Positions 1,567 through 50,804 of a DNA stretch of 64,000 bases are shown here, in pieces; position 1 is the stretch's first letter; every line of letters begins with the position of its first letter. The DNA lies in the NCBI GenBank assembly GCA_046563655.1, contig CM102286.1, positions 1,612,001 through 1,676,000 of the forward strand, written 5' to 3'. The position numbers and the translations under genes were made by a program. Source of the DNA: Yuukianura sp. NJ FZ-2021 (Eukaryota). A model generated the notes under the pieces. It did no database searches. It saw nothing but the letters and a program-made list of their open reading frames with translations, and was not told the origin of the DNA.

Positions 1567-4500
1567 AATGCTCGGCTCATCAAAGGGCGGGACACGTTCA
1601 ATCTATGGAGAGGCGCATCGACTATGGCGGGTATCACGAAATTCTACATCTTCAATGTCACTAACCCGGACGAAGTTAAGGACGGTGGCAAGGCCAAATT
1701 GGAACAACTTGGACCATATACTTACGAGTAACTGCTTTTCTATCTATTTTTTCAAAAGAATGGCGCCAAAAGACAAGAAATTTAAACTGTTTCATCTCGG
1801 TTTTTGATAAAAAAAGAGGCATTCCGCACTTTCTTGTGCTTTATTGAACTGGCTTTTTGCCGTGTCAAGTGGTATACTTATGCACTTTACTCATACTCAT
1901 TCTCATTCTCATAAAAACTTTTCAGAAAAAAATTTTTTTGTGAAAAAAAATGAAAAAAGTGGAATTTCATTAGGGTTCACTTTTTTCAATGCCCACCAAA
2001 CACCAGGGCGAAAAGAAAGCAAAAAATTCATTTTATAAAAAAAAATCTATTTCGTGTTTAATTTTCAGTTCCAAGTTGTTCATCCATACTACACTTGTGT
2101 ACTAGTTAATTTAAGCTGCATTATGCATTTTGTATTTTGAAAGATTTTCGTTTTCTTTTGAAATTTTGAAGAAATGTTGGAGTGTTTTTATGAAACCCTG
2201 CGATTCAATTGCAGAAAATAATTAGCTTTTCTTTCGTTTCTTCCTTCCGCACTTAATGCAGTTCTTAATGACCTTGGTATTTGTAAGAAGCCACTCGTCA
2301 TGCCACTTTTTTGTTCTTTCTGTAAAAGAACTTCAAAAAATATGCCGTTACTCGGTTAATTTTTTTTTCTTGTAATTTTTTTCAAAATCTTTTGTAAAAA
2401 TCTAGAGAGAAGAAGTTGAAGGTTGACATTGAGCCAGGGGAGAGGAACAATTCTTTGCAGTATCGCAACAAGCAACTGCTCCACTTCCATCCCGAAATGT
2501 CAACCGGTTCCGAACAGGATGTGGTCACCATCATCAATGTCCCTGTCCTTGTAAGTGCATTGACCCAACAAAACTAACCTAATGCCAACATTTACTTTCC
2601 TAACCTATCTTCTGCAAAATAAAACTTCCAAGGTACTAAAAACCAAGGTTCATTGACAACAAAAAGATTTTCTTTAACAAGTTGGGTACTACCTCGCTTG
2701 TTGACAGAAAAACGAAAAAAAAGTACCAATTTTAGTACTACCCATCTGAAAAATTGTTACCAATTCATATGCCAAATTACAAACAAAATTCGGCTGTATT
2801 GTTATGACTACAATGCCCTGAAATTAAAAGGCACTTCTTTTTTTTGCAAAATTAAAAAAACATGAGATATTACCCAACCTGCTAAGGAAATCAAAATCAT
2901 CAAACCTTGTTAAAAATTAAAAATAAGAGTGAAAATGTAAATTTTTAACTTTCTGCTCAGATTCTTGTGAAACTGACGTCTGGCCTTGAAGATGCAGCGG
3001 GAATTCAGAGCGGGATGAATTCAAAATTGGTTGAGGCGGGAGAAGGACTTTTCAAAACAGCGTCAGTTCGTGACCTACTTTTTGATGGTGTCGGCATCGA
3101 ACCGTATTTGGATTTGCTCCAAGTACATGAATCCAATGACACGAAAATTCCAGATTCCTTTCTGGATGGAAAATATGCACTTTTCGAAGGAGTAAGTCAC
3201 TCATGTGCAGATTTTTGTGCAAATTTCAAGTTGCATGATGTAGAACGCGAGAGGTTTTGTTAACTTTTGTTGTGACTATGAATTCAAGTGGTGTGATGAT
3301 CAAAAGATGTGTAACGATGCATCCTTAATGTGTATACGGAAACCAAAGTGTGAGGAATGGGAGAGTCCGTTTGAGTCCTGTAATAAGATCTACCGCATCC
3401 TGTTAGAATGAGCTCCTTCAATTGTACTTTGATCACCACAAAATTGTACAACTTTTTTGTACAAGTTTCAAAATTGGAGGGAGTAACTTTTCGCTAACAC
3501 TAATCACAGGATTGTTCGGTCAGAAAACATTTTATGGCTTTCAGTTTGCGGAAAACCGTAGCATCCAAACGGAATTCTTCCAAATTTTTATGAAAAGTCT
3601 CAAGTACAATTTAGTTTTAATTTACAAAACTTGGTAATTTACAATTCAGTGAATTTTAGTTTGAGATTTCAAAATTTTGGCTTTGAGGAGAAATTCAGGC
3701 GAAAACTTTCTTAAATGCTTGGAATTGCAAAAGGCAAGTTTTTTTTTAAAAAAAAGTTTCCAAGTTTTTGATTGGTATGACTTTCTGCAGGAGAAGTTAG
3801 CATTGCATACAAAAAAAAATTGAGAAAATTTTTGTCTCACGTTTTTGAAAATTTTTTTTTTCAGAGAAATGGCACACAAAATGTCCTTTGGGAAATCAAC
3901 AGTGGGGAACACGACTCCCAGGACTTTGGTAAAATGTTGGCCAGGAACAACGAAACACTTTTACCGTGGTGGTCGAACGAAACTTGCAACAGCCTCAACG
4001 GTACCGACGGAATTCTATTTTCACCGTTCGTGACGACCGAAACGGTACTCACGGCATACAGTTTCGACATATGTCGGAAACAAAGTTTCATCTACGACTC
4101 CACCACAACCTTCAAAGCCACCAACGTACCGACGTACCGGTTCAAACCGGACATGAAAGCATTCCAATCAGTTGAAAACAATGCCGACAACTGGTGCTAC
4201 TGCGCAGAAGCCGAGTCGCTAGGTTGCATGCGCGATGGAATCGTGTCCATCTCTGCCTGTTCTGACGGCCGAGCACCATTTTCCATATCGCTGCCTCATT
4301 TTTATGAAGCAGAACCAACTTTGCTTGAAAACGTCGACGGATTGGAACCGAAACCAGAGGAACACTCCACCTCTATAGACATTGAACCGGTAATTAAAAA
4401 AAATAGTTTTTATCTTATATAAAAACAGTTTTTATCATATAAAAATATCTTATCTCACTTAATTCCGGTACTTCAACAGCCCACAGTTTGGCTTAGGTAG

Positions 4501-6205: not shown

Positions 6206-7031
6206 ATGGGGTTCAAACTTGGCTCTAAAATTGCCAAAGGAAGAAATCCTTGTATTTGCTTGAATATCAAAACAGGAGCAGCGTTAATTGGGGTTTTTGA
6301 ATTGGTAAGAGTTATACTGCATAAATTATGTGTAAATAAAATAATATATTATAAAACATAATAATTATATAATATTAATATCTCGTTTAGGTGTTATGGT
6401 CAGTCATAATGAGCGTGACTTCGGTCAACTTGTACAAAGTGTCTGGATTAATGGATGACTGGAAGGCCGAGAGTGAGCTTAAGCCTCAGTATCCAGATGA
6501 CACGGAAATGTCTTCGCCTGAGGTCAATGACCTTGGCCAAAGTCTATGTAATTAAGCATTTATAGTTTATTTACTTTTATGCATTAATTACAATTAATAT
6601 ATTATAATTATATGTATTTACTTTTTGTTCAACTGAATTTTCAGTGCGTGGGATTTTCGTGGCTCTTGTTGCTTTGGTGGCTGTGAGCGTCGTGAGAATT
6701 GTGAATGGCACATTTCTCATTTTGGGAATTGTGATGGTTTGGACAAAATTTAAAAACCGCTTGCATAAATTTGTTTCAAAATTTGAAAATTTAACTGAAA
6801 ATTTAGAATTCGACAGTGCTGGTCGCAATTTGGATTGGTGTCAAAATCTTATCTTTTGTTTTGACCATGGGATTCTTCGTGACCGCTCTGGCCAATGGCA
6901 CGGCTACGTTTGAACTGGATGTAATGTACGCCGTTAGTGTGATCGTGACGGCCTACTTCTTGTGGGTTGTGATCGCTATGCATGGAGTTATGAAAATGGA
7001 AAATCAACCGAAATCACATACCAAAGTCTAA
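6206..7031 (+). CDS. small four-transmembrane protein (LAPTM/DUF4728-like)
   Basis: Four exons (~6206-6304, 6392-6547, 6644-6736, 6808-7031). N-terminal PCICLNIKTGAALIG motif followed by four hydrophobic helices. Confidence 0.7.
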
Positions 7032-7381: not shown

Positions 7382-9793
7382 ATGGGGGTTCCTTTAGGTG
7401 CAGCCATGGTTACAGCAGTTTCATTTTTCTTTCAACTGGAAAGTCAGCACTTGATAGACATTGGGCGGAGGCAGTATGAAGCAAAACAGCGAGAAAAACC
7501 AATCCAAGCCGAAACAAACATATTTGATTTCATAGTCGGTAATCTACAATTCAGATTACGCTCTTTTTGTTTTCTAAGTTTTTTAAAACGGAAATTCCCA
7601 ATTTAAAAAAAGAAAAATTTCAAAAACTTGTTCAGTTGGTAGTGGTACTGCTGGATCCATAGTTGCTGGAGAACTGTCCAAAAAATTTCGTGTTTTGCTG
7701 CTGGAAGTCGGCGGACCTGCGCCAACGCTAACCAGAATTCCAGCATTCAGAACAATTGCCCCTTCAATTCCAGAAATCAATCACGAGTATTCTTCAGTAA
7801 AGCAAAAGCATGCTCTTAATCGGGTTAGTTCAACTGCATTATGACCTTTGACATTTAAATTTTATAAGTTCATGACCTCAGACCTTGACAACAGAAAGTG
7901 GAGCTATCAACTGGTAAAATGCTTGGTGGAACTCATGCCCACAATGCCTTGATTTACAACAGAGGGAACAGGTAGAATCTGATTAATTTTGTTTCTAAAA
8001 CTTCAAAAACTGCACAAAATTTGCAAAAAATTGTTGATTTAGGCGTGACTACGACACAATTGCTGAGTTGACAGGAGACGACAGTTGGCGCTACGACAAT
8101 ATTCTGCCATTTTTCAAAGAAATGGAAAACTACATGGGTCCATTTCCAGGACGTATGCAGATCCGAACTAACTTTTATTAATTACGTTAACTAAGATTTT
8201 CAAAAAAAATTACTTGAATGATAATGCACAGAAGTCAGTTTGTGTTTGTAGCGCAGCATGGTAAAACTGGTCCAGTGCCAATTCGAATTCGAAATATAAA
8301 AGAGCTTGAGTTATACAAAGAGGCTGCCAAGGAGCTTGGATGGAACTATTCTGATGCAAATGGCCCTCAACGGGAAGGCAAGAAATTTGGAAAATTTTGA
8401 ACAAGAAAAAATTAGTTTAAAAAAAATTACAATAATTTTTAAGGCATTAGTCCCCTGGATTTTACCCAAAGCAGAACTCGTGCCGTGACGACTTACAACG
8501 CCTACGTGGAGCCTTTTGTGACAAGCAGAAAGCTTCTGACTGTTCGCCCTCTAGCGGAAGTGACTCGAATTAAATTTAAAGGCACCACTGCCACTGGAGT
8601 CCAATACGAACAATTCGGAAAGTCGTTTAAAGCAACTGCGTTGAGAGAAGTCATCATCTGCGCAGGCGCATTCGGTTCGCCAATGCTTCTTTTCAAATCT
8701 GGAGTCGGACCTGGTCGTATGCTTGCTAAGGCGAACGTAATTTTTTTAATTTTGAAAATTTCAAAATTTGAATTTCTAAAATTTTTAAATGCTTTCCCGC
8801 TTTTTACCTTCTAATAGATAAAAGTGATAAAGGACTTGCCTGTTGGAAAGAATCTTTATGACCATTTCAAAGTCAAAGTCAACACAACAGTTCGACGCGG
8901 TGTTTTAACTCTTGCAAAAAACTTAAACAAGAACAATTTCTGGCGGGAATCTTCAAAACCAAATCGGCTCCTCACTAACCTTGACTTCCTTGCACAGGCA
9001 TTCTATGTAAGTAGTTTTGCCAGAAAAAGGAACGAAGCTGATTGGCCAGATCTTCAGTTCTTTCGAGAAAATACATTCGTAGATGACAATGGAAAAGTAA
9101 ATCTTGTTTTGTTTACGATGGTTGGACGACCAACGTCAATTGGAACCGTGAAATTGGACACGCGCGAGTATTTGAACGGCGAAAGAGAAAACACACGTCT
9201 CGCTCTCATAGATCACAACATTTTTGGCGACCCCGATGACCTGCTGCGTTTGTTAGAAGGTTTGACGCTACTCAAGTCAAAAATGAATTTTCAGTTTTGA
9301 ATTTTGAATTTCCGTGTTTTTTGAATCTGTTTCTTCAGGGCTTAAGCTGAATTTTCAATTGTTCAACACAACGGCACTGAAGAAACTTGGAATTAAACCA
9401 ATTCCGGACAAAGATTGCACAAATGGCGCGAAATTCAAGTCAGACGAATACTGGATTTGCTTCATCAGAAAATTTGTGACTACTCCTTGGCACCCTTGTG
9501 GTACGTGTCGTATGGGTCATCGTGGGAATACTGCAAATTCAGTGGTAGATACCAACTTTAAGTAAGATGCTAACAAAGTAACGAATTAATTTAAATATAT
9601 AAACTTATTTAAATTATATTTAATTTAATTTAGCTAAGAATTTAAATTGTAATTCAGGGTTCACGGACTTGAAAAGCTGAGAATCGTTGACTCTTCCGTA
9701 TTGCCGCTAATCACCAACGCCAACACCAATGCTCCTACAATGGCACTTGCTATGAAGGGTGTTAAAACGATATTAAAACAAAATCTGTTTTAA
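7382..9793 (+). CDS. GMC oxidoreductase (glucose dehydrogenase/choline oxidase-like), copy 1
   Basis: Spliced. [13 protein letters not shown] (FAD fold), [76 protein letters not shown]. Confidence 0.93.
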
Positions 9794-10275
9794 CAAGGAT
9801 TTTTGTGATATTATATTTTAATGTATTTTATTATTCTATATTATATTTTAACTTGCAACATGGACATAAACATACACGTGTAAAATATCTATGTTCTCAG
9901 GATAAGTGTAAAACATTTAACTGACAGATTTAGAACCAATTAATTATATAATTTAAATATTAATTAATATTAATTGAACTATTAATCAATTTAAATATTT
10001 TGCAACAACGTATTTAGGTCACTGACCTTTTAGTGACCTTTTAAAAGGTCATGCGGAACTCATTGTTAACGGAGCGTTAATGGCTTTTTCTCGCAAAAAT
10101 TTTGCAACTGTTCTTGTGTAATGCGTTTTATTTTTTGAATCCATGAATTATAATCATGTATGTAAATGTATGGACAAGTGGATACTTTTTTTTACTTGTT
10201 AACTAGAAGTTAGTAGTTAGTCACAGTGTCATTAGTTTGACAAGTAATTTACTTTTTGAAGTTAAATTCAGAAAA

Positions 10276-12975
10276 ATGGGGGTTCCATTAGGTGCAGCCA
10301 TGGTTACAGCAGTTTCATTTTTCTTTCAACTGGAAAGTCAGCACTTGATAGACATTGGGCGGAGGCAGTACGAAGCAAAAGAGAGGGAAAAACCAATCCA
10401 AACAGAAGCAAACACATTTGATTTCATAGTCGGTAATTTACAATTCATACAACGTTGCGTTTTTTAAAACTGAAATTCTAAATTTTCAAAAAAAAGAAAG
10501 AAAAATTTGAAAACTTGTTCAGTTGGTAGTGGTACTGCTGGATCCATAGTTGCTGGAGAATTGTCCAAAACATTTCGTGTTTTGCTGCTGGAAGTCGGTG
10601 GTCCTGCGCCAACACTAACCAGAATTCCAGCATTCAGATCAGTTGCCTACACAATTCCAGAAATCAATCACGAGTATTCTTCAGTAAAGCAAAAACACAT
10701 TTTTAATAGGGTGAGTTCAACTGCACTTTGACCTTTAACCTTTAAACTTTACATCTTCATGACCTTTGACCTGGGCAACAGAGAATGGAGCAACCAACTG
10801 GTAAAATGCTCGGTGGATCTCACGCCCACAATGGCATGATTTACAACAGAGGAAACAGGTATAAACCAATTTTTTTCATCTAAAACTTCAAAAATTGCAC
10901 AAAATTTGCAAAAAATGAGTTAACTTTAGGCGTGACTACGACACAATTGCTGAGTTGACAGGAGACGACAGTTGGCGCTACGACAATATTCTGCCAATTT
11001 TCAAGGAAATGGAGAACTACAAGGGTCCATTTCCAGGATGTACGGCGCCTGAATTAATTTTAATTAACTACAACTAATTACAATTACTTGGACAAAATTT
11101 AATTAATTACGACTAATTTCAATTAAGTTGAATGAGGATGCGCAGAAGTCAGTTTGTATATTACAGCGCAGCGTGGCAAAAAAGGTCCATTGCCAACTCG
11201 AATTCGCAATATAAAAGAACTTGAGCTTTACAAAGAGGCTGCCAAGGAACTTGGATGGAACTACTCGGACTCAAATGGACCTCAACGGGAAGGCAATAAA
11301 TTTTGGAAATTTTGAAAACAAATTGGTTTTTTGAAAGAAAAAAACAACAACTTTTTTTCAGGTATTAGTCCCATTGACTTCATCCAAACCAAAACTCGTG
11401 CTGTGACGACTTACAACGCCTACGTGGAGCCTTTTGTGACAAGCAGAAAGCGTCTGACTGTTCGCCCTCTAGCGGAAGTGACTCGAATTAAATTTAAAGG
11501 CACCACTGCCACTGGAGTCCAATACGAACAATTCGGAAAGTCGTTTGAAGCAACTGCGTTGAAAGAAGTTATCATCTGCGCAGGCGCATTCGGTTCGCCA
11601 CTCCTTCTTTTCAAATCTGGAGTCGGACCTGCTCGTATGTTGACAAAAGCAAACGTAATTTCCCGCGTTTTTTAATTTTGAATATTTGAATGTGGGTAAA
11701 TTTTAAAATTCCAAAATATTCTCCCGCCTGTTACCTCATAATAGATAAATGTGGTAAAGGACTTGCCTGTTGGAAAGAATCTTTATGACCATCCCGCATT
11801 TCGCTACAACTCGACAACTGGGCGAGGTGTTTTAACTTTAGCCAAAAACCTCAACAAAAACAATTTTTGGCGGGAATCTTCAAAACCAAATCGACTCCTC
11901 ACTAACATTGACTATGTTGCGCAAGGATTCTTTGTAAGTAGTTTGGCCAAGAAAAGGAACGAAGCTGATTGGCCAGATCTTCTGTTCTCTCGTCTCCCAA
12001 CATTTGTAGACGACAATGGAAAAGTGAATGTCATTTTGACTATGATTGTTGGACGACCGACGTCAGTTGGCACATTGAAATTGAACACGCGCCAATATTT
12101 GAATGGGGAAAGAGAAAACACGCGCCTTGCTCTCATTGACAACAAATACCTTAGTGACCCCGATGACCTCCAGCGTCTTGTAGAAGGTATGCAGTACTCT
12201 AAAAAAATGTTCTGAATTTTGAATTTCCGTCTTTTTTGATTATGTTTGTGCAGGGCTAAACCTAAATCATCAGTTGTTTAACACTACGGCTCTGAGAAAA
12301 CTTGGAATTGAGGTTGTACCGGACAAAGATTGCACAAAAAGCGCGAAATTCAAATCAGAAGAATACTGGATTTGCTCCATTAAAAAACATATGGATACAA
12401 CGCTCCACCCTTGTTGTACGTGTCGCATGGGCCATCGTGAGAATACTACAAACTCGGTTGTAGATACTAACTTTAAGTAAGATGTTAATTAACTAACTCT
12501 AGTTAATCTAAATAGAAAAATTATTTATATTTAATTTAATTTAGCTAATAGGGAGTTTGCGCTTCAAATCATTTATAGAATTTATAGAAAGTACAGAATT
12601 TAGCAAGTCCCGCCCCTTTTAACACCCCTCCACCCCTCTCGTGATTGGTCGATTTCAAATCCGTGACGTCACTTTCCAAACTTTTTTTGTTTATGGCATT
12701 TATAGAACGTATTTATAAATTTTGGGCATCTGAAAAGTTTAAAAAGTGACGTCACTTCTCACCGTAAATTCTATACTTTCTATAAATTCGATAAATGATT
12801 TATAACGCAAACTCCCTAATAATTCACATGGTAATTCAGGGTTCACGGACTTCAAAGGCTCAGGATCATCGACTCTTCCATATTGCCGCTAATACCCAAT
12901 GGAAACACCAATGCTCCAACAATGGCACTTGCTATGAAGGGTGTTAAAACTATATTAAAACAAAAGATGTTTTAA
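10276..12975 (+). CDS. GMC oxidoreductase, copy 2
   Basis: Same exon structure and motifs as copy 1 ([24 protein letters not shown]). Confidence 0.93.
12550..12817. mobile_element. MITE (possibly PIF/Harbinger-like) in the last intron of GMC copy 2
   Basis: ~50-bp imperfect TIRs AGGGAGTTTGCG...CGCAAACTCCCT with AAT on both sides. Absent from the homologous intron of copy 1. A related degenerate copy lies at ~53060-53370. Confidence 0.8.
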
Positions 12976-13196
12976 AATATGGAGCGTTCCATATTCTATA
13001 TTCTACATTCATATTCTATAAACTCTATAAAGTAAGTTGCAATTACTCTCTTCTATTTTTGACTCTATTAATTATAATTATGTATGTAAATATATGGACA
13101 AGTGGATACTTTTCTTCTTACTAACTAGTTACTAGTTCGTCACAGTGTTAGGATTCAGTTGACAAGTATTCACTTGTTAAAGTTAGATTTAGAAAC

Positions 13197-15743
13197 ATGG
13201 GGGTTCCTTTAGGTGCAGCCATGGTTACAGCAGTTTCATTTTTCTTTCAACTGGAAAGTCAGCACTTGATAGACATTGGGCGGAAGCAATACGAAGCAAA
13301 ACAGCGCGAAAACCCGCTCCAAGTGGAAACGTTTGATTTCATAGTCGGTAATATCTGCTATTCAGATGACGTTTTTTGTGTTTTCTAAAAAAAAAATTTA
13401 AAATGAGATTCGAAATTTAAAAAAATAATTGAAAACTTGTTCAGTTGGTAGTGGTACTGCCGGATCCATAGTTGCTGGAGAACTGTCCAAAACATTTCGT
13501 GTTTTGCTGCTGGAAGTCGGTGGCCCTGCGCCAACACTAACCAGAATTCCGGTATTCAGAACAATTGCCTACGCAATTCCAGAAATCAACCACGAGTATT
13601 CTTCAGTAAAGCAAAAACATGCTTTCAATAGGGTGAGTTCAACTGCACTTTGACCTTTGACATTTAAACTTTATAACTGCATGACCTTTGACCTTGGCAA
13701 CAGAGAGTGGAGCAACCAACTGGTAAAATGCTCGGTGGATCTCATGCCCACAACGACTTGATTTACAACAGAGGGCATAGGTATAATCCAAGCAATTTTT
13801 TTCTAAAACTTCAAAAATTGCACAAAACTTGCCAAAAAAATTGTTGATTTAGGCGTGACTACGACACAATTGCTGAGTTGACAGGAGACGACAGTTGGCG
13901 CTACGAAAATATTCTGCCAATTTTCAAAGAAATGGAAAACTACATGGGTCCATTTCCAGGATGTACGGAGCCTGTATTACTAACTCTAATTAGTAATTAC
14001 AACTAATTCCTATTACTGGAATGAATTACAATACAATTAATCATAAGTAATTACGATCACTTGAATAAGGATGCGCAAAAGTTAATTTTTATATTACAGC
14101 GCAGCGTGGTAAAAAAGGTCCAGTACCAACACGAATTCGAAATATAAAAGAACTTGAGTTTTACAAAGAGGCTGCCAAGGAACTTGGATGGAACTACTCG
14201 GACTCAAATGGACCGCAACAAGAAGGCAATGAATTTTCAAAATTTTAAAAACAAATTGGTTTTTGAAAAAAAAACTTTTCTTGAAGGCATTAGTCCTATT
14301 GACTTTACCCAAAGCAAAACTCGTGCCGTGACGACTTACAACGCCTACGTGGAGCCTTTTGTGACAAGCAGAAAGCTTCTGACTGTTCGCCCTCTAGCGG
14401 AAGTGACTCGAATTAAATTTAAAGGCACCACTGCCACTGGAGTCCAATACGAACAATTTGGAAAGTCGTTTAAAGCAACTGCATTAAGAGAAGTTATCAT
14501 CTGCGCAGGCGCATTCGGTTCGCCAATGCTTCTTTTCAAATCTGGAGTCGGACCTGCTCGTATGCTGGCAAAAGCAAACGTAATTTCCCGCGTTTTTTTA
14601 ATTTTTGAAAATTTGGAACTCGGAAAATTTTAAAATTCAAAAATATTCTCCCGCCTTTTACCTCTAGATAAAAGTGGTAAAGGACTTGCCTGTTGGAAAG
14701 AATCTTTATGACCATCCCGAATATGACTACAACGCGACAGCTCGGCGAGGTGTTTTAACCTTAGCCAAAAACCTAAACAAGAGCAATTTTTGGCGGGAAT
14801 CTTCAAAACCAAATCGACTTCTCACTAACGTCGACTATGTTGCACAAGGATACTTTGTAAGTAGTTTGGCCAAGAAAAGGGACGAAGCTGATTGGCCAGA
14901 TCTGCAGTTCTCTCGTCTCCAAACATTTGTAGATGACAATAGAAAAGTGAATGTGGTTTTGATTATGATTGTTGGACGACCGACGTCAGTTGGCACACTG
15001 AAATTAAACACGCGCCAATATTTGAATGGCGAAAGAGAAAACACGCGTCTTGCTTTGATTGACAACAAATACCTTGCTGACCCCGATGATTTGCAGCTTT
15101 TTCTAGAAGGTTAGACGCTACTCAAGTCAAAATTCAAATCTCAGTTCTGAATTTTAAATTTCCTTGTTTTTTTTTTGAATCTGTTCGTTTAGGGCTAAAC
15201 CTGAATCGTAAATTGTTTAACACTACGGCTCTAAGAAAACTTGGAATTGAGGTTGTACCGGACAAAAAAGATTGCACAAAAACCGCGAAATTCCAATCAG
15301 AAGAATACTGGATTTGCTCTATTAAAAAAAATTTGGCTACTACGTTCCACCCTTGTTGTACATGTCGCATGGGCCATCGTGAGAATACTACAAACTCGGT
15401 TGTGGATATTAACTTTAAGTAAGGTGTTAATTAACTAACCCTAATTAATTTCAATAGAAAACCTCACTAACAAGTATACTAAATTTGTGTTCACTAATAA
15501 TCAGGGATCTCAAACATATTTAGTCTCCGCGCCCGTAATGTTAACAAAAAAAATATTTGGGGTTTTTGTTTAATTTAATTTAACTAAACATTCACATTGT
15601 AATTCAGGGTTTACGGACTTCAAAGGCTCAGAATCGTTGACTCTTCCGTATTGCCGCTAATCACCAACGCAAACACGAATGCTCCTACAATGGCACTGGC
15701 AATGAAAGGTGTTAAAACCATATTAAAACAAAATATGTTTTAA
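13197..15743 (+). CDS. GMC oxidoreductase, copy 3
   Basis: Same exon structure and motifs ([24 protein letters not shown]). Confidence 0.93.
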
Positions 15744-15993
15744 AAAGTGGTTTATTTTATTATATTTTATTGCATTTTATTATACCTTATTTGAGAAACA
15801 TGCAACATTGACATAAACAAACACGCTGCTGATCAGAATTAGAAGTTCCTCACCAAGTCATACAGATTCGTGATAAATGTGAAGCTCTTCAATGGAAGAT
15901 TAGAATCAGTTTAACATTAATTAATTAAACATGTTGCTAAATATTTTGCAGCAACGCATTTAATGCTTGGGTCATTGACCTTTTGGTGACCTT

Positions 15994-18900
15994 TTAAGAG
16001 GTCATCGGGAGGTCATGATTAATCGGAGCGCTAAAGGTCAAAATCCCCTCAGCAGACAGTGTAGGCTGAAAATCTCGCGGATCAACGCCATGCGGAATTG
16101 AAAATTTCTTGTTAAACGAACGACTTGAAAATTCCGTTTTTTGCTCTCCGTGAACCGTAACGACGTACTTGGTGATCCGAATGGTGATATCTTCTGGTCC
16201 ATAGCCAGATACATCATAAACCATCTAAAAGTTAAAAAATATATTAATAATAATGAATAATTAATTAATATATATAATATAAAACTCTTTTATGTCTCTT
16301 ACAGTGAAAGTTTTCTCGTTCCGGTCAATGTCTCTAACGTGACCGCCTTCAATCGTTTCCTTTGCCGCATTAAGATCAAGTGTGGTTTTCAGAACTGTAG
16401 TTTTTTGTGTAGAGGTCGTTGACCTTTGTGAAGTTGTTGATTGCTGTTGTTGTTGTTGTTGTTGTTGGGTTTGAGTCGACCGGATTTGTTGTTCGTGAAC
16501 GTTCCTATGTTCAACTTGTTGTTGTTGAACAGTTTTCTGTTGAAGTTGTTGCGTATCCGTGACTTGTTGTTGTTGCTGTTGCAAAACCTTTTGTTGTTGC
16601 GTTACTGTAGTCTGTTGTTGTTGCGTCGTTTTTTCATGAGTCTGCGTAACTTTTCCGATGATGGTCAAGAATCCGTCGTGACTGATTTCACTTGTGATGG
16701 ATCTGGCTTCAACGCCCTCTGGAAGTGGAACTTCCTTGTAAAACGACTTTTTGGAAAACTTCGTTTCGTGTTTTCCCTCAATTTTGATCATGGTTTTCGT
16801 AATTCTGATTTCAATTTCTTCACGTCTGTATTCCTTTACGTCAATGACGACCTATGACATAAAAAAAAATTGGTATAATATTTTTTGAACTTTTTTTAAA
16901 ATTTGGTGCTAACTTTTACCTTAAACGTTTTTCCGTCGTTGAATTGCGTAACTTTATTTGTTTCTTCATTGGAACTAGATTTTGTTAACGTATTTTCCTT
17001 CTGCTGCGTTTCACGTTGAATTTCGTGAACATTCACAACAGAAAAGTCTTGTTCAATCTTGTGTGTGATTTCTTTTTGTGCTTGTGGTTGTGGTTGTTGC
17101 GGCGCAGGAGTCGGAGCTTGTTGAGCAGGTTTCTTCTCAACGGGAGCTGAAATTGTAAGATGCCCATTGTGTGTAATGGTGCTTTGAATTTTCGAGGGCT
17201 CCACTCCTTCTGGAATTGGATGTTCTTTTGTAAATGAGCGACTTGAAAAATCCCGCGTTTGTTTTCCTTCAATTCGAATCGTAGTTTTTGAAACTTTGAC
17301 GGTAATTTCCTCCCGGCGGTATTTTGAAACGTCGAGAACCAGCTGAAATTAAAAAAAAACATCAAATTAGTTTTGAAAAAGTTGGAAAAATTTAAACCCA
17401 AAAGGATTTAGAAGAAAGTTGCTAATTTTTTATTTTTTTTATTTTTTGAAGGTTTACTTCATATTTGTCCTCGTTCAGAACATTGCTGATTTCTTTTGGT
17501 GCGTCCGATTCCGGTGATCCGGGTCGTACCGACGGTTCCTGCGTCGGTACAACAACAAAATCGTCGTCTCCGGTTTCTTGCGGTTTGGTCGGTTCGTTTG
17601 GAGTGACCGGTTTTTGTTGAGTTGGTGTTGGCTGCGGTTGGACATTTGTGGTTGGACCGCTAGATGGCTGAGCTGCAACGTTCGGTACATTTTGACTTTG
17701 CTGTGGTGACTCAGTTGACGGTTTCAGGGGCACTTTGACAACCAAGACGCCATTTGGAGCCAAACCGCTTGTCACATCTTTTGGCTCAACGCCATCCGGA
17801 ATTGGCACTTTTTTCAAAAAAGATCGACTTCCAAAGTCATCTTCATGTCTTCCCTCAATTACCAAAATTCGCTTCACAATTCTCACTCGGAGTTCTTCTT
17901 TTGTGTATTCCGTTACGTTCACTCTCACCTAAAACCACAAAAAATATTAAAAAAAAAAGTTAGACATCGCAAGTTTTTTTCTTTCAAAAATTCTAGGCAT
18001 CGTTCCAAAAAGTCTATAAATAATTAGATCCTGACGCCTATTTTTGTTCCGGTTCGTTTAGTTTTCTAAATTCGAAACAAATTTTAAACAAGAAACCGTA
18101 CCGTCGTCTGGTGTTCGTCGTTTGTTTGACTCAGTTCGTTCGGTACGTCACTGGATGGCGATGAAGATACCACGCGTGGTTCGTCTTTAGGTAACGGTTG
18201 GATTTGAACCGGTTCGACTCCTTCTTCGGTATCGGCAGGGAATTGGGGCGTTCGACTCACCGGTTGGGGCTGACCTGCAGGCTGGGCTGATGGTCGACCT
18301 GCAGGTTGGGTTGAAGGCTGACCTGCAGGTTGCTGTGGTTTATCTTTCAAGGTCGGAGTGATTTGTGGCTGCTGCGGAATTGTTTCGGTAGCCCTCCGGC
18401 ATTGCTCTTGTTGTAGTTGCTCCTGTTGCTGTTGAGTAACTTGCTGTTCTTGCTGCGTTACCTGCTGCGTAACTTCTTGTCGTCGTTGCTCCGTGACATG
18501 TTGTTGCTGCGTTTTCTGAACTTGGGTTTGCGTCTGCGTCACTTGCGTTTCTTGGCGTGTATCCACTGCTGTGCTGGGTGACGAATCAAGTGGAGCCGTT
18601 ACCGTAAGGATTCCGTCAGTGGTCAAAGTACATTCGGTTTGTTCAACTTTGATGCCATTGGTTGTGTATTCCTTGTAGAATGACCTGTGACTGTGACCTG
18701 AGTGACCTACAATGTACTCTGACTCATGTTGACCTTCAATGGTAATCTTGTACTTGGTCACCTTGACCTTGATCTCTTCAGCCCTGAACTGAGTACTGAC
18801 GTTGACGCGAATCTGCAAAACCGAAATTTTGAAATTTATAACATACTTCCCACTCTTTTTTTTTAAATGCAATGTTTCTCGACTTTGATTTTCTTTAAGA

Positions 18901-19952
18901 GGTTGACCAATATTTTATGTTTTTTTGGTTTTGCAAAAAAATAAGTGTTCTTTCTTTTCCGGGTGTCGTAGTCATAGAAATACAGCCGAATTTTTTAAAT
19001 TTTACTTACGAATTGGTACCAATTTGGATTAATACAAAAATTGGTTCCAATTTTTTTTTCTTTTTTTTTTATCAACAAACGAGGTAGTGCTCAACCTGTT
19101 CAAGAAAATTAACTTTTTGTTGTCAAGAAACCTTGGTTTAAATGTGTGTTTTACCGTAAAATTCTTGTCGTCAACGAAGGTTCCGAGTTCCTGTGGAATC
19201 GTCGGCGGATTGACTTTGCGAGGACAAATTCCCGGGCAGGAATCAGTTGTTGAGCCTACATCAGTAACACTGCTGGAGTTGCTAACATTAGACGACGTGA
19301 CCTTTGACACAGTCGTCTGAGTCAACTGATTTTGTGCCTCTCTTTCAATCGGTGCGCTAATTTTCAGTATTCCGTCTTTGCTCAAACTGCATTTGATCTT
19401 TTCTGGAGTCACTCCCGGGGGAATACTAAATTTTTTACTAAACGACCGAGATTTGAAATTATTTTCGTTAATTTTAATTTCCTGTTTCCCGGTAATCATC
19501 ACAACGTCATCCAAAACTTTGACCTGGATGTCATCCGGAGCATACTCTGCCACGTCTACCTTCATCTACAACAAAACAGTTAGATTTAGCTCAAAGGTCA
19601 AAGGTCAAAGGTCATTGACCTTTCAACTTACTTCAAAAGTATCCTGTTTCTGGAGACAAGCCACTTGAGTCGACACGTCTTCAAAGTCACGCTCGTTTCC
19701 GCTGAATCTTTCTCCCAAAAAACGTAGCGGTTCCATCATAAAGTCTCCATCCGTGTTGAACATTTTTTGAATTTGCGTGATTTGGCGCGTTTCTTTTCGT
19801 GACGAAAGTGGCGACCCCTCGTGACCTCCGAATTCTCCAAGCGAACTGGAACTCTCCACACTTTCACTGCTGTGCTGCACAACGCGATGAATGGATTTCG
19901 TCGTTTTCGTGACAGTGCTCCGTTCTTCCTGGACTTCATGATGCTGATCCAT
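15994..19952 (-). CDS. small heat-shock protein (HSP20 family) with six tandem alpha-crystallin domains, ~1038 aa
   Basis: Exons 19952-19632, 19565-19155, 18812-18102, 17928-17458, 17342-16920, 16851-16303, 16224-15994, all joined by phase-0 GT-AG introns. Exons 2-7 each carry [D/N]V..[Y/F]..[E/D][E/D]I.V.....I.G....S[R/K]SF.K...IP.GV......L...G.L.I.AP. The linkers are Q/T/P-rich. Confidence 0.88.
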
Positions 19953-20088
19953 CGTTTAACTTTTAAGTTTGAATAAGTTAATGTCAATTAAATTTAACTT
20001 TAACTGAGGTTTCTGTTTGTTCAAGGGCGTGGTTTGACCTGCAACTTGTCAAGTGTGCTACTAAACTCAAGATTTGTGAAAGTGGCTT

Positions 20089-20096
20089 GTTTTATA
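20089..20096 (-). promoter_or_regulatory. putative TATA box of the multi-ACD sHSP gene
   Basis: CTATAAAA on the minus strand ~140 bp upstream of the ATG at 19952. Confidence 0.4.
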
Positions 20097-20673
20097 GCAG
20101 ATTTTGGAAATCTCCTCCTCCTCTTTTTCGAAACTTAAGTGACGAATCCTTAAGAACGAAGAAAGATCGAGATCATTGTATCTTTTCAGATTCAAAAAAA
20201 ATGTTGCAAGCTGCGGGATTTGAAACTGTGGAGGATGTCATGACCATAATTGAAACACCTACGCAGAAAACATAAAATAGACTTGTGAATAACTTTTACA
20301 GTTGAACATTTCCAATGTGGAAACGCTAAAGGAAGAAGATGAGTCCACCAACTGCAGATGAGATCACCAAAATGCATTTTAAGTGAAAAGAACAAAAAAA
20401 GTTGGCTAAATTCCAAGAAATTTTTTGGTTTAAAAAAAATTCTATGACAAGATCCCTCTAGCCTTGATGACAATTTGCCAAATTAAGAATTTTTGTGACA
20501 ATTCCGACGTGACATGGACTTAGACTGACGTAAAACGGACATTCCAGAAGAATTCAATTAAAAAGCACAAGAAAATTTTCATACCATTTTAGTTCAAACC
20601 GAATTTATTTTCATACTTTTTAAAATTTTGAATTTTTCTAAACTATTTTTTGAAACCTAGTCGGAATTCATTA

Positions 20674-23537
20674 TTATACGTAAATTTCTTGGTCTTCAGT
20701 TTTTAAACTAACGGCGGCTTCTTTGATTTTTTCCAGTCGTTCCTTAGTTGTGCGAAGTTCATCCTAATTAGAAAAATTTATATATTTTAACACTGTTTTT
20801 GAAATTTTCTAAAATTTGGGACTTACGCGTAGTGCATTTGCCTCTTTGATTGAAATTTCATAAAGTTTTTCAGTTTTTGCATTTTTGGCATTGGCTTCAT
20901 CCAGTTTATAGCAAAAATTTTTTCGTTGTTGAGCTGCTTCACGTCCTTGTTTTTCAGCAACTTGGAGCAATCTGTTTGCCGTTTTCTTTTCAAGTGAAAG
21001 TCTACTGATTTCTTGAACAGCCAAATTCAAATCGGATTTCAATTTTTCCTGTGTAGTTTCATACCGGCGAAGTTGAATTTCATCCATTTTGATTTTACTT
21101 TTAAATTGACCAAGACGTAAATAGTATTCTTTTTTGGCCGTATTTTCCCGCTCTGCCTTTGTTTCTTCTAAAATTTGAATTTTCTTGTTCAGTTGAGCCA
21201 CTTGTTCAGTCAAAACGTCGTTGTCATGCGCCAGAGCTTTGTTAAAGGTCAACTGATCAGCCAAGTTGGATTTCTCTGCTGCTAGTTCCACTAGTGACGA
21301 ATTGTAGTTTTTCAAAATCTAAAAAAAAATTATCCAAAATTTTCAGAAAATTAAAAAAAAAGTTTGCTTTTTACGTTTTCCATTTCCAGTTTCGTTTCTT
21401 CCAAAGACGCCATCAATTTTACACTTTCTTGTCCAAGTTTTCGGTTGAACGAAGCCGTTTCAGCTTCACGTCGAGTCACATCTTGTAGCTGGTTCAATGT
21501 ATCTTGAAGATCTTCTTCAGTCTACTTCAAAAAAAAATATTTTCAAAATTTTGAACTTTCTTTTTATGAAATTTTGAAATGACCTTTGCATGTGCTCTGC
21601 GTAGTTGCGACTTTTCACTTTCTCCAACTTCAAAACTTGTTTTCAACTGCCGAATAATTGCCTTATTTTCGGAATCTCTTTTTCTAAAAGTTTCGGCAAC
21701 TGCTTGGGCATCTTTCAGCAAAAGTTGAAGAGCGCTGCATTCACTTTCCAGTTTTTGAATTCGTTCAACTTTGACATCGTCTGACGTTTTTTCAGAATTT
21801 AAGTTCATCATGACCTCGGCTTCGACGAGTTTCATTTCCAGTTCACGTTTTAAACCAAGGATTTCAGTCTTTTCTTTTTCGACTTCCGAAAGTTGAAACT
21901 CCAGTTCTGAAAAGAGGAAGCAAAAGAAAGTTAATTTAAATATATTTAGTTAAATTATTTATTTTAATTATGAGATTAATTCAATTAATTATTTAAACTT
22001 GCTTTTCAATTTCATTTGATTTGATTCTTCCGCCTCCCGCAACTCTTCTTGGTGTCGCTCAAATTCCTGTTTTTGCTTTCGCCGAAGTTCAGCAACATTT
22101 TCTTCTAAACGCTTTTTAGCCTTTTGCTCCTCCTCTAGTTCTTCTGAAAGTAAAGATTGTTCCAGTTCCTACACACATACAGAATATTTCAAGTGAATTT
22201 TTTATCCACGCGTGAAAAATTCACGTGCGATTTACAAACTGACCCGAATGCCAAAACTTACAAGTTTTTCCAGTTTTGACTGGAAATTGGTTTTGAGTTG
22301 CTCAATTTCAGCCGCGTGTTGAACTCTACCATCAGCCATTTCGGCTTCCATTGAATCCAATTTGTTTGCTTTTAAATGTACATCGAGTTTTAGCCGCTAA
22401 ATTCAAAAGCGAAATGTAATTACATTGTAATTCAAACGAATTCACATGAATTACTTTGTAATTACATGAAGTTCCTTTCTAAGGAGTTCAGTTTGTTGTG
22501 AAATTTCAACTTTTTCGTTCTTCAGTTGCTCAATAACGGAATTCCTTATGCTCAAAGTAGCCTCACATTTTGACAATTCTTCAGAAGCTTTTTGAAATTT
22601 TTCATCCAAAAGTCCGTTTTTCATTTTTTCATTTTGGAAATTAGACTGGACTTGGTTTAATTCCAGCGTCAATGACCGCATTTCCTGTTGTAACTTTGAG
22701 GCCAATTGGCGCTGCTCTTCGGCAATCTGGGACGCTTCAGAGCACTTTTTCAAAAAAAAAAAAAAGTTCAAAATTTCGAAACATTTTTAAACGAAAATAA
22801 ATGCTTCACACATGGCTTTTTCTGACCTGCTTCTCTAATGTTTTTCTTAAAAGTAAGATCTTGTCTGAAAAGAATGTCTCCCTGGCCTGAATTCTTCGTT
22901 TGACGGATTCCATTTCCAGTTGACTCTTTCGTTGCATCAAATCCTTCCTACGTCAAAAAGGTATAATTTTATATAAAATTATATATTATTTATTAATATA
23001 TTAATATTATCACACATTCTATACTAAAATTTAGTTCATTTTCTTTTCTTACATTGAAAAGATTGACATCGATCCTGGTTCTGAAGTAAAAGGAACGCAA
23101 TTAATTTTTTGGTTAATTTCCACCAGTAAGCTGTTTTCCTCATTTTCAAAATTTTGAAATTTTGTTTCCAATTTTGAACAATTTGTACGAATCGATTCCG
23201 TCGGAGTTGTGGTTTCCCTTGGATTATTTTGATTTCCAGTTTCAAAATTTTGATTTCCATTTCCATTTTCATCAAGTTCAAAATCATTTTGGCTCAGAGA
23301 TGCCAGTGACTCGGTAGAGCTGAACAGCGAAATTGAGTTGCTCGTAATACTTTGAACTGAATCTCGTTTTTTGAAATTTGAAAAATAATTTTTGAATTTC
23401 GATTCCGATTCCAAATTTTGTCCAGATCGATGCAGAAAGTCCGTGATGCGTGTTGAAAGTCGATCAAACTTTCGGTCAGAATCGGTTCGAATTAGTGGAA
23501 AGAAGTGCCCTCTGTTCTTCATTTCAATGATGGACAT
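20674..23537 (-). CDS. long coiled-coil protein of unknown function (multi-exon, start uncertain)
   Basis: Series of E/K/Q/L-rich heptad ORFs (22451-22771, 21527-21835, 20809-21315, others) with splice sites. The last exon ends ...KTEDQEIYV* at 20674. Confidence 0.65.
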
Positions 23538-42751: not shown

Positions 42752-44126
42752 TTAGGCTGTGCGAAATTTGTTTTTCTTTAAATCCCGAAAATTAGTAAGA
42801 ACTGCAGCTTCAAAATTTGGTGAAAGAGAGCAATAATTTTTTGAATGGATTTTTCCTTTTTTAATTGCCGTTTTTAGATTTTTGAGTAGTCGGCTACGAT
42901 TAAATGTTGCAGAAAGGCGGGTATTTTTAAAAACTTTGAATATTTTAAAGTATGTGGAGTCGTTGTAGTAGCGAGTAAATGCTAAACCGCAACCATGAAG
43001 AACTGCCAGTCCATCCTTGATGTCGTCACAAACTTATTTCCTCTCGATGACAATTCTTTGGTCTAAAGTTCCACGCAGGGTCCAGTAAAACTATTTCGGT
43101 TGGATTTCTTGTCAAAAAAGTTTCTAAAATGTCCTAAACAAATTCAACACAAAAAGTGTTGCTAGATGCAGATGTGAAATTTATGGTTTACCTGATCGGG
43201 ATAAATAAATTTTGGACGAAGTTCTTTGGCAATTTTTAAAATTCTGGGCGTGAAGTGGCTAGATCTCATCCGAGTTAAATTCATAAGCAAAACTCCGGAA
43301 TTGAGTGGAACCCGGTCTTTCTTGGCTGTTGTTTCAGGATCTCCTCGGTGAATACTTTGGATAGAGTGATAGTGTGGTGCAATTGAAGCCAAAGAGTGCA
43401 TGTCATGTGACTCAAATTTGGCCCAGAGGTCAGCGACACTTGACACTTCCCAGAAAAATGAGGTCAGTATCCAGGTAGAGTACGGAGTCAAACGTCGGTA
43501 GAAGTTCAGGAAAAAAGAGTCTGGCGGATGAACAAGGTCGAAAAATAGAAGCCATCCACTCCGAACCTTTAAGTAAAAAAAATTCAAAATTCAAAAAGTA
43601 TGCTAAAAACTAAACTAATTTTGAATCCTATCATTTTTTTAATCTTGCCTTGAGGGTACTTGAGCGGAATAAAATTTAACTTCATACGGCTAAAGAATTT
43701 GGAATTCCACTGTTCACTATTCCCATAAATTGTTTCATTTAGCTTGTCAAAATTAGTTTTTTCATTTGACAAAACATTTATCTCGACACAATTTTTCGAA
43801 AAATTTGCTCCTACGCTGTTCGTCCTCGTATTGTCCAATGTTATTAGAATTGACTTGATGAGAACCAGAGTCTGGTCCAGTTGTCTTGCAAAACGTTTAC
43901 CGGCCCTTCCAGAACTTTTTGTCTCACTACACATAACCACTACCACTTTGATTTGGCACAAATTGAGGTCAATGACCTTTGAATCACTTTTACCGACTTC
44001 TGCTTCACTGTTTTGAATTAAACGTTTCCTGGTATCGACAAAACAAATCAGCAGGAAAACAACTACTATTTTACCGCTAAAATTTGACCACGAAGGAGCA
44101 AGAAACATTGTTGACAGCCTTAGCAA
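42752..44126 (-). pseudogene. glucoside xylosyltransferase (GT8, GXYLT/shams-like), two frameshifts
   Basis: Motifs QTLVLIKS, FRPCSSARLF, LYLDTD, LNSGVLLMNLTRMR, PDQD, WNF, VLHG. Frameshifts from a 7-bp duplication at 43435-43448 and near 43035. Confidence 0.8.
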
Positions 44127-44361
44127 AAATTGACAATGTTCTGGTATGAGTTATTCAGCATTTTTCTCCAAACCAAAGCTAACCATATGTGTTGCATTTT
44201 ATAAAAATTTAGAAGGTTATTGAACCAAAATATGTAAACAAGTTTATTATAATCATATCAATCAATTTTCAAGTAAAGTAGCAAATATATAAATTAGCAA
44301 ACGACAATTACTAGCTAGCTTTTCACCATTTTTCTTTGGTTAAAAATTTACTACAATATTT

Positions 44362-45697
44362 TTATTTTCCTATTTTTGCACGATTCAAAAACGGCGCCAG
44401 TACTGAGTGTTCAAATTTCGGAGCACGTGAACATCTATCTTTGGAAGTCTTTTGCGCATTTTGAATTGCGGTTTGCAATTTTTTCATCATTTGGGCACTA
44501 TTAAATTTTTTGGAAAGGTGAGCCATTTTGAAAACCTTAAAAATTTTATAAAACGTCTTGTCTGGACGGAGGGAGGTAAATTGGCCACCAAAACCATGCA
44601 GAACTCCAATTCCGTTTTGGATGTCACTACATACGTACTCTGGGTCACAAATTGGTCCAAAGTTCCAACAAGGATCCAGAAAGGCAATTTCTTTCGGATT
44701 TTCGTCCAAGTAAAATTCTAAAATGTCCTGCACATTTTGAAAATAGAGCACAGTAAGTACAATTTCCAAGTTTTTAAAATGTCATTTTCATACATACCTG
44801 ATCACCATACACCAATTTTGAGCGAAATTGTTCAGCGGTTGTAACAATTTTTTGAGTCCATCCACTGGATCTCATCCGAGTCAAGTTCATTAGCAAAATG
44901 CTTGAATTTATTTGAATTCGTCCTTTTGTTGCCATGGTTACTGGATCTTTCCTGAGGACACTTTGAATAGGATAACGTGGTGTAACTGATGCCAGCGAGT
45001 GGAGGTCATGTGACCTAAATTTTTCCCAGAGGTCACTCATACTCCGCAGAACTAAAGTGTCCGTGTCCAGGTAAATAACGGAGTCCATTGTTGGCAATGA
45101 TTCGGCTAGGAAGAGTCTGGCGGTGGCGAACGGTCGACAACTGTAGAACATCCACGAAGGAGTGCCTTGATTACAAAATTTTGAAACAAAAATAAATGAA
45201 AATCAAAATTCACCTAACGTTTAAAAAATTTTTTATATGCAGGCTTGCCTTCAGGATACTCGAAGGGAACAAAATCTAGTTTCATACGGTTTACAAATTT
45301 GGAATGCCACTGGTTACTGTTGCCGTAAATTTTTTCGTTTAGTTGGTCAAAAATACTTTTTTGATTTGACAATATTTATATGGAGACAATTGTTTGGAAA
45401 TTTCGTTTCTCTTTTGGAAATTTCGCTGTTGTCCAAAGTCATCAACATAGACTTGATGAGAACCAGGGTCTGGTCCAGTTGTCGCTTGAAACTTTTAGTA
45501 ATTCCTGTTTTTCTAGGACCACGGCATACTATCAGGGCTATCTTGATTTCACAACTGCTGAGGTCATTAACCTTGGAATTGTTTTTGCTGACTTCTGCTC
45601 CATTCCTTTGAGCTAAACATTGCTCTAAACAAACGAAACTAAGCAGTAGCAACACAGTGACTGCAGTTAAGTGTGAATTTGAACCAACCGCCAACAT
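44362..45697 (-). pseudogene. glucoside xylosyltransferase (GT8, GXYLT/shams-like), single frameshift in exon 1 (could be an assembly error)
   Basis: RPFATARLFL, IYLDTD, INSSILLMNLTRMR, YGDQDIL, PCWNF, VLHG. The exon-1 frame breaks near 45370 relative to the paralog. Confidence 0.7.
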
Positions 45698-49978: not shown

Positions 49979-50804
49979 TTTAAGTAAAAATCTAAATCAA
50001 AATGGACAAAACCAAACTAAGCAATAAGTTACTTGCAGCGAAGTGACGCTTTGAGTCGAAAACCTTCAACTTAACCTTATAACACTGAGAAATTTTTGTT
50101 ATCTAGACAAGAATCGATTTGATGGTGTAAAACCCGTGTTTTTCTTTTGATATACTTTCAAGTTCATCATAGTCGAAAAAGATGTAGAAAAATTTAAACA
50201 AAGCCATTTTCTATACAGTTAAAGTACAAATTAGGCTAATAAAACTTAATTACCAATGCTATTTCATATGAAAAATGTTTCTTTTATGAAGTTTTTATGC
50301 CACAGGACATCCTGTTTTGTAAATTTTTTTGGAATTGTTGGAAAAGTAGTTCTCACATTCAAATGTGCTGGTTTTTGAGTTTCACATGAACTTCACATTA
50401 AAAACTCAACACAAAAGTGATCCCACTATTCATGGCCACATTTTGATGTGATTCTCCTAGTGCTTGGAGGTGTTAGGAGCGAAAATTTTAGTTGGTTTAA
50501 AATTTTGGAAAAATTCGATTTTCTCAAAACTGGATAGGTGATTATTTCTAGAAACAACTTTATCCAATATGCCACCTACAAATAATGCAATTGAATGCTC
50601 ATTAGGAGAAGCTGAATGCCGGGTAAAATCAAGGGCATGGCAGCCTATTAGGGTAGAAATGACTTGCTGTTCATTTTTTAATAAAGTCAAACTTGTTCTA
50701 AAAACTGTTTTAGTTGGATAAAAAATTACAGTTGAAAAATATAAGTCTTCAGACATACCAGCAAGTTTTTAAGTAAAAATTACAAACTACAGCATTTATA
50801 CAAC

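Follow-up and report, generated by a model that had tools for sequence, protein, structure and literature searches.

Small heat-shock proteins (sHSPs) usually have a monomer of about 12–43 kDa, and Schistosoma p40 is a flatworm sHSP that carries a pair of alpha-crystallin domains (ACDs). According to the accessible parts of the sources cited here, two-ACD sHSPs are ubiquitous in annelids and have also been reported from molluscs and phoronids (PMC9075518), the earthworm Eisenia fetida possesses nine two-ACD proteins together with the three-ACD EfsHSP68 (PMC13226371), stress-responsive transcription has been reported for multi-ACD sHSPs of annelids (PMC13226371, PMC9075518), and the whiteleg shrimp has triple- and septuple-ACD genes that respond to heat (Zhang et al., 2023, Sci Total Environ 880:163239, as cited in PMC13226371). 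The phrase "seven ACDs" in PMC2850924 was considered as a possible seven-ACD protein and set aside, as in the accessible part of that paper it denotes seven solved structures. A search of the open-access literature turned up no study, biochemical or structural, of a chain with at least three ACDs. Naturally occurring proteins in which many ACDs are tethered have hardly been studied, and it is still debated how sHSP assemblies are built and regulated by dimers of ACDs, by motifs that dock into grooves and by disordered extensions. Here we describe a gene for a predicted six-ACD sHSP in a 64,000-nt stretch of DNA (hereafter the window) from Yuukianura sp. NJ FZ-2021 (assembly GCA_046563655.1, contig CM102286.1, positions 1,612,001–1,676,000). 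An initial annotation of this DNA knew of two-ACD forms from flatworms and of no described six-ACD protein; the premise that such chains are undescribed has to be given up in light of the shrimp genes with 3 and 7 ACDs and EfsHSP68 (PMC13226371, accessible part), as well as predicted crustacean and beetle chains with 5–9 ACDs in RefSeq/GenBank.

The gene occupies 19952..15994 on the minus strand, where a spliced open reading frame (ORF) of seven exons runs from an ATG at 19952–19950 to a TAA at 15996–15994 and comprises 1038 codons plus the stop. Exon 1 (19632..19952, minus strand, as are all parts of the gene; 107 codons) encodes the N-terminal region with a conserved "DFEDVSTQ..." segment ahead of the first domain, ACD1, ends with strand beta2 of ACD1, and is without a Pfam match. 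Exon 2 (19155..19565, 137 codons) continues with beta3–beta9 of ACD1, a T/S-rich linker and beta2 of ACD2 (HSP20, E 2.2e-15), and the following exons repeat this build: exon 3 (18102..18812, 237 codons) holds ACD2, a 157-aa Q/P-rich linker and beta2 of ACD3 (E 3.2e-9), exon 4 (17458..17928, 157 codons) ACD3, a P/Q-rich linker and beta2 of ACD4 (E 5.5e-11), exon 5 (16920..17342, 141 codons) ACD4, a linker and beta2 of ACD5 (E 7.4e-13), and exon 6 (16303..16851, 183 codons) ACD5, a Q/T-rich linker and beta2 of ACD6 (E 9.9e-10), before exon 7 (15994..16224, 76 codons and TAA) ends the chain with ACD6 and a 4-residue tail (E 6.7e-10). The six introns, from the first at 19566..19631 (66 nt) through those at 18813..19154 (342 nt), 17929..18101 (173 nt), 17343..17457 (115 nt) and 16852..16919 (68 nt) to the last at 16225..16302 (78 nt), all run from GT to AG with a pyrimidine-rich tract before the AG, and all exon lengths are divisible by three, so that every intron is in phase 0. 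A possible polyadenylation signal, ATTAAA, a consensus match only, lies 30 nt past the stop codon at 15959..15964 (minus strand).

The product has a calculated mass of 116.5 kDa and a pI of 5.98; this mass exceeds the usual size range of sHSP monomers, a descriptive range that other multi-ACD members also break. The initial annotation had placed a 1038-aa chain of about 115 kDa, with one start, one final stop and in-frame splice sites, at 15994..19952, all of which agrees with the seven-exon model. The gene has exon ORFs of 137–237 codons in a region of 35–43% GC, and such lengths, combined with orthologues under purifying selection, put the gene well beyond chance. The seven-exon, six-ACD structure is a genuine, conserved animal gene, for which a chain of about 116 kDa is predicted.

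Pfam HSP20 (PF00011) matches six of the seven exon ORFs (exons 2–7, E 2.2e-15 to 3.2e-9; none for exon 1), just as the initial annotation had expected, and the scores of 37–57 bits against a curated cut-off of 20.8 place the product in the sHSP family. Each match begins at position 9–12 of the hidden Markov model (HMM), which indicates that each ACD receives its first strand from the tail of the exon before; all six introns therefore split their ACD at one shared place, between beta2 and beta3. The six ACDs are indeed divergent, as had been noted, with pairwise identities of 28–44%, and an HMM built from the six and run on all six-frame ORFs of at least 25 aa in the window detected no seventh ACD. 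Against known structures, the six-ACD profile matched the HSPB1 ACD (4mjh) at E 2.6e-19, alphaB-crystallin at about 1e-18 and Tsp36 (2bol) at E 6e-16, with C. elegans SIP-1 also among the closest matches, and on these sequence matches the ACDs are classed as metazoan-type. The core sHSP motifs SRxF and IPxGV are present, the arginine of "SR" being kept in five of the six ACDs, and, relative to HSPB1, the loop leading into beta6+7 is shorter by five residues. The N-terminal region ahead of ACD1 measures 99 aa, and the linkers 1–2 to 5–6 measure 57, 157, 77, 61 and 103 aa. Q, T and P are abundant in them (linker 2–3, Q 25% and P 13%; linker 3–4, P 21%; linker 5–6, Q 34% and T 19%), in keeping with their earlier description as Q/T-rich and P/Q-rich, and about half of the chain consists of such low-complexity linkers.

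Profile A1, built from the cores of the six ACDs, was searched against 1.84 billion representative proteins and gave 4364 matches at E≤1e-3. Short ORF-type proteins among them correspond to single exons of the window gene, linkers included: P0057 to exon 2 (67% identity, 67–68% with locus L001 937–1350), P0096 to exon 3 (44%), P0080 to exon 4 (47%), P0053 to exon 5 (61%, equal to L001 2748–3137) and P0054 to exon 7 (80%). Several of these single-exon proteins share one 3179-nt metagenome contig. Word-index searches returned P0057 as the sole match to the ACD1 region, and no longer protein at E≤1e-3 with exon 4. In the DNA of relatives, 181 pattern matches were reduced to 9 confirmed ones at 8 loci, among which the metagenome loci carry collinear exons: exons 1–5 in L001, 1–3 in L002, 4–5 in L007, 6–7 in L006 and exon 7 in L005, while L008, from a second metagenome, has exons 4–6 in the order of the window. 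Taken together, the metagenome relatives cover all six introns. Orthologues are 58–64% identical for exon 1 (L001 and L002), 50% for exon 6 (L006 98–679) and 77–80% for exon 7 (L006 and L005), and the exon boundaries are kept, with AG ahead of 14/14 internal exon copies and GT after 12/12 complete ones, at codon positions identical to those of the window.

Between the window and its relatives, synonymous differences are saturated (pS 0.55–0.95), and the nonsynonymous proportion pN is 0.09–0.26 in the ACD cores and 0.26–0.48 in the linkers. Close copies inside one metagenome gave dN 0.035 and dS 0.139, hence a dN/dS of 0.25 over 757 codons, with 0.12–0.37 per exon. Purifying selection acts on the N-terminal region as well as on every ACD, and to a weaker degree on the linkers. 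A further related locus, L003 (1–3431, plus strand), is another poly-ACD gene, whose ACDs number at least six and share one strand. Its uninterrupted ORFs at 600–1784 and 2505–3338 hold two full ACDs each, two of the beta2/beta3 introns being missing, and its last ORF ends in a Q/S-rich tail and a stop; in these two-ACD ORFs the covalent ACD–linker–ACD linkage is independent of splicing. Separately, two contigs from Logan, 2726 and 3834 nt long, contain uninterrupted ORFs with 5 and 7 ACDs (P0014 and P0015), which could be transcripts.

A FastTree phylogeny of 402 ACDs, which rests on a short alignment and is weakly resolved, places the window ACDs in a separate clade of 48 rows (SH-like 95) that comprises nothing but rows from the window, from the metagenome loci and from JGI/Logan ORFs, apart from three others. 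Within it, each window ACD pairs with its positional orthologue, with SH-like values of 97–99 for the four displayed and the same pattern in the tree drawing for ACD5 and ACD6. As the ACDs group by position with their orthologues, the duplications are older than the split from these relatives; ACD3, ACD4 and ACD5 cluster together. The separate clade suggests, as far as a tree of such sequences can, an independent, lineage-specific expansion. The phase-symmetric exon, consisting of beta3–beta9, a linker and the next beta2, would enable the array to grow by unequal crossing-over in introns, and this is the most likely route by which six ACDs arose.

The linkers are not uniformly variable. Aligned to orthologues, the position-specific conserved stretch is the last 15–20 residues ahead of each ACD, where the islands "DFEDVSTQ", "LGTFVD.K.FT", "PNE.SQTND", "KEI....E.K.E", "KSSS.EE.NKVT" and "TLDLNAAKETI" are kept despite the saturated synonymous divergence from the relatives. 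Four of the five linkers each contain a single [IVLM]-x-[IVLM] motif, 18–31 residues ahead of the next ACD and kept in orthologues; the motif is absent from the N-terminal region and linker 1–2. The candidate docking motifs, each the sole one in its linker and all on the minus strand, are V-Q-I of the IXI type in linker 2–3 (18201..18209, 28 residues before ACD3, aligned with V-M-I-P-I in the orthologue), V-V-V within "DFVVVP" in linker 3–4 (17548..17556, 25 residues before ACD4, "DFV.VP" being invariant in L001, L007 and L008), V-N-V in linker 4–5 (17028..17036, 31 residues before ACD5, with V-L-V or V-D-V nearby in orthologues) and L-D-L within "TLDLNAAKETI" in linker 5–6 (16372..16380, 18 residues before ACD6, the whole island being identical in L006). 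By analogy with the IXI motifs of ordinary sHSPs, we infer that VQI, VVV, VNV and LDL may dock in the beta4/beta8 groove. Linker 2–3 also contains three imperfect 8-residue repeats, "QPAGQPS(T/A)", encoded by repeated CCTGCAGGTC at 18262–18333 (minus strand) in exon 3. An ESM Atlas search with the N-terminal region yielded no usable match.

In structure predictions, AlphaFold2 modelled the exon 4 product with a beta-rich ACD3 core (pLDDT about 76–85 over residues 11–70), and in a two-ACD relative, P0005, both ACDs were confident (pLDDT >90) and superposed on alphaB-crystallin ACDs with a TM score of 0.77–0.82 by target length and an rmsd of 1.4–2.5 Å. The models thus predict the immunoglobulin-like beta-sandwich of the ACD. 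A Tsp36-like arrangement of the two domains of P0005 was also considered and rejected, comparison with 2bol giving a TM score of 0.22–0.25 and an rmsd of 19.9 over 235 columns. A complex prediction for the ACD3 and ACD4 cores, run without alignments and without controls, scored 0.06 against a mark of 0.34 and is evidence neither way.

We consider it probable that the locus is a single gene of an invertebrate animal for a 1038-aa poly-ACD sHSP, with five largely disordered linkers between its ACDs and a holdase-type mode of action. By analogy with HSPB1, alphaB-crystallin and Tsp36, the six-ACD protein would act as an ATP-independent holdase, whose ACDs would pair via their beta6+7 edges within one chain and/or between chains. 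The linker islands, each made up of the motif 18–31 residues before an ACD and the 15–20-residue pre-ACD segment, may do the work that N- and C-terminal extensions do in ordinary sHSPs, in docking into grooves, in assembly and in the binding of clients. The covalently pre-assembled trimer of ACD dimers that the initial annotation proposed, along with a desiccation, cold or muscle role and condensate-forming linkers, would be hypothetical additions to this picture.

Several observations weigh against this interpretation. The inclusion of all seven exons in one mRNA is predicted from the sequence, and chaperone activity is presumed from family membership only. The column that holds the Arg of HSPB1 "FTRKY", which we take to be the disease-linked beta7 arginine equivalent to alphaB R120, is Lys in all six ACDs, and the dimer interface may accordingly differ. 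ACD2 has the weakest Pfam match, a 7-aa insert and no "IP" of IPxGV. This insert is His-rich ("...VGHSGHS...", 18690–18710, minus strand, exon 3) and is missing from the L001 and L002 orthologues. In the AlphaFold2 model of the exon 4 product the linker islands are without structure (linker pLDDT 39–54) and docking is not seen, and the P0005 model shows no confident packing between its ACDs (pTM 0.43); with this value and an arrangement unlike that of Tsp36, domain packing is not predicted. Finally, a scan for heat-shock elements with GAANNTTCNNGAA, allowing up to one mismatch, gave 53 matches across the window against 41.2 expected, the two perfect GAANNTTCNNGAA sites both lying within coding exons, and found no convincing element upstream, where the 850 nt at 19953–20800 hold one one-mismatch site; the scan provides no case for heat induction.

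Some of these points bear on other explanations of the locus. The protein might have the sHSP fold but serve mainly a structural or scaffolding role, for example in muscle, the cytoskeleton, or egg or dormant-stage storage, rather than that of a stress-induced holdase. The missing upstream heat-shock element would fit such a role, as would long low-complexity linkers filling about half of the chain, and the labels that crustacean relatives received automatically ("titin-like", "serine-rich adhesin-like") mirror the same repetitive build. However, core sHSP motifs are kept in all six ACDs, the ACDs are the most constrained parts, and shrimp genes with 3 and 7 ACDs respond to heat, as related second-hand in the accessible part of PMC13226371, so that we judge a mainly structural role to be quite improbable. 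An error in the gene model would be a further explanation, with one gene read where the DNA holds six separate sHSP genes in tandem, each with a single ACD, or an array in decay; tandem sHSP arrays are common, and exons 2 and 7 happen to start with ATG. Yet no exon meets a stop before its donor, and methionine occurs only at residues 1, 64, 72, 73, 108, 130, 800, 963 and 1036, none of them in residues 131–799, because of which ACD2–ACD5 are not translatable alone. The ACD-bearing ORFs lie only 66–342 nt apart, their boundaries are kept in relatives, pN is far below pS, dN/dS is 0.25, and relatives have two-ACD uninterrupted ORFs; we find such an artefact scarcely credible.

Another explanation accepts the exons and questions the product. 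All six introns are in phase 0 at one structural position, and since internal exons of symmetric phase 0–0 rebuild an ACD at each junction, exon skipping would stay in frame. The gene could then be a cassette system that yields in-frame isoforms with 1–5 ACDs, of which the six-ACD chain would be one further, possibly minor, product. Many RefSeq isoforms of crustacean poly-ACD genes (Eriocheir X13/X15, Procambarus X3 and X5), known by their source names only, are in line with this. Nevertheless, the introns are short (66–342 nt) with ordinary GT–AG sites, relatives keep every exon in unchanged order and under purifying selection, and in L003 the loss of introns between ACDs has locked those ACDs into one ORF. 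We regard such a cassette system as unlikely, though it is the main rival reading and might also complement the preferred one. A bolder view combines several of these elements in a lineage-specific poly-ACD family whose symmetric exon is a "mini-sHSP" module (beta3–9, a disordered spacer rich in Q, a docking motif and the beta2 that follows). How many ACDs a chain has could be tuned in evolution by exon duplication and intron loss, as in L003, and in the cell by exon skipping with hybrid ACDs, and the full chain would form a self-tethered, linker-driven assembly or condensate instead of an exchangeable oligomer; we put this forward as speculative, with a rather low probability. The preferred reading remains one gene for a holdase-type six-ACD chain.

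Motifs of the hormone-receptor type were considered as well. Palindromes matching AGGTCAnTGACCT at 19609–19621 (intron 1) and 15969–15981 (just past the stop) were rejected as a gene-specific hormone-receptor element, as such sites are spread window-wide. With up to one mismatch, the AGGTCAnTGACCT palindrome occurs at 11 sites in the window against 0.05 expected (for example 6521–6533, 10016–10028, 19609–19621 and 43966–43978), and the AGGTCA hexamer is present in 94 copies where 23 would be expected, these often lying in small groups such as those at 19595–19621, 48609–48634 and 57263–57274. None of the eight related loci contains the palindrome; AGGTCA is mostly rarer there, and intron 1 of L001 is without it. 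The enrichment may reflect an element that is dispersed or a regulatory motif particular to this genome.

Tandem duplicates are abundant across the whole window, in which the neighbours of the sHSP gene are CD36, GMC oxidoreductase, CRAL-TRIO, GT8 and C2H2 genes. For the CD36 exon the nearest protein is bryozoan (37%), followed by vertebrates and then by an insect. The GMC oxidoreductase is present in three tandem copies at 8443–15743 (plus strand), with near-identical exon ORFs at about 8.4–9.3, 11.3–12.2 and 14.1–15.7 kb, and its last copy runs convergently towards the sHSP gene's 3' end. Glycosyltransferase-8 has two copies at 43162–45202 (minus strand), and a CRAL/TRIO-domain gene has three at 46760–47170, 48989–49390 and 53442–53849 (minus strand). 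Three tandem paralogous multi-exon genes at 50745–52228, 55414–56789 and 57788–59403 (plus strand) encode hydrophobic proteins without a Pfam match; their nearest Atlas clusters are unnamed arthropod proteins (0.96–0.97), and the nearest named ones, 7tm_7 chemoreceptor clusters (0.87), are a lead only. As a hint at the phylum, these arthropod matches conflict with those of the CD36 exon. At 60387–61421 (plus strand), a 344-aa single-exon ORF matches the microbial-type Pfam Terpene_syn_C_2 (E 1.9e-8) and carries a DDxxD-like "DDLADDEE"; its sequence makes it possible that a horizontally acquired terpene synthase sits here among otherwise animal genes.

Returning to the poly-ACD proteins, a domain count on matches of the A1 profile search shows how often ACDs are combined in one chain. 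Among the 150 best representatives, ranked by summed score, which favours multi-domain chains, 13 have one ACD, 86 have two, 33 three, 9 four, 3 five, 4 six and 2 eight. Named examples, with the number of ACD stretches matched in the A1 search itself, include Homarus P0001 (2415 aa, 8), Coccinella septempunctata P0003 (XP_044752623, 1072 aa, 9), Procambarus P0013 (XP_045606876, "titin-like", 1522 aa, 6), a krill protein P0006 (1493 aa, 6), Eriocheir P0004 (1236 aa, 5) and the firefly Abscondita terminalis P0002 (KAF5286076, 600 aa, 6), and entries from Tigriopus, Trichuris and a marine metatranscriptome have three each. RefSeq names the crustacean poly-ACD proteins P0001, P0004, P0012, P0013 and P0043 "serine-rich adhesin for platelets-like", "titin-like" or "dentin sialophosphoprotein-like"; these misleading names stem from the low-complexity linkers and conceal the sHSP nature of the proteins. 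The multi-ACD class is far more widespread among invertebrates than the literature suggests, and automatic annotation hides it.

With six ACDs in its predicted spliced ORF, the window product would count as a poly-ACD protein, that is, one with at least three ACDs in a single polypeptide. The gene belongs to the known, poorly characterised multi-ACD sHSPs, an architecture that is rare and barely studied but has precedents. The malacostracan proteins (those of shrimp, P0013, P0001, P0004 and P0006) resemble it in having 3–8 metazoan-type ACDs per chain of about 1000–2400 aa with long S/T/Q/P-rich linkers. They differ in repeating a full N-terminal-like region of the "LPI..RG.FF.DSFF" type with each unit, whereas the window gene repeats only the short pre-ACD segment, and the window ACDs fall in their separate 48-row clade. 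Coccinella P0003 and Abscondita P0002 likewise have at least six ACDs in one predicted chain, but their linkers are short and not Q-rich, their ACDs belong to other clades, both are uncharacterised predictions, and the six ACDs of P0002 are near-identical to one another. EfsHSP68 and the two-ACD sHSPs of annelids share tandem ACDs in one transcript and variable linkers, with two or three ACDs in place of six; the ACDs of EfsHSP68 are reported, in the accessible part of its description, to derive from a recent triplication, in contrast to the 28–44% identity among those of the window. Tsp36 of Taenia saginata (2BOL) likewise joins metazoan-type ACDs in one chain, though two against six, and the window protein is not of the Tsp36/p40 type. 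Human HSPB1 and alphaB-crystallin (4mjh, 2y22 and 4m5t) provide the best sequence matches of the window ACDs and the best fold matches of the P0005 ACDs, but have one ACD per 20–27 kDa chain. Beside all these systems, the window gene stands as a well-defined case, with six old and constrained ACDs, position-specific linker islands and one exon per module kept in relatives.

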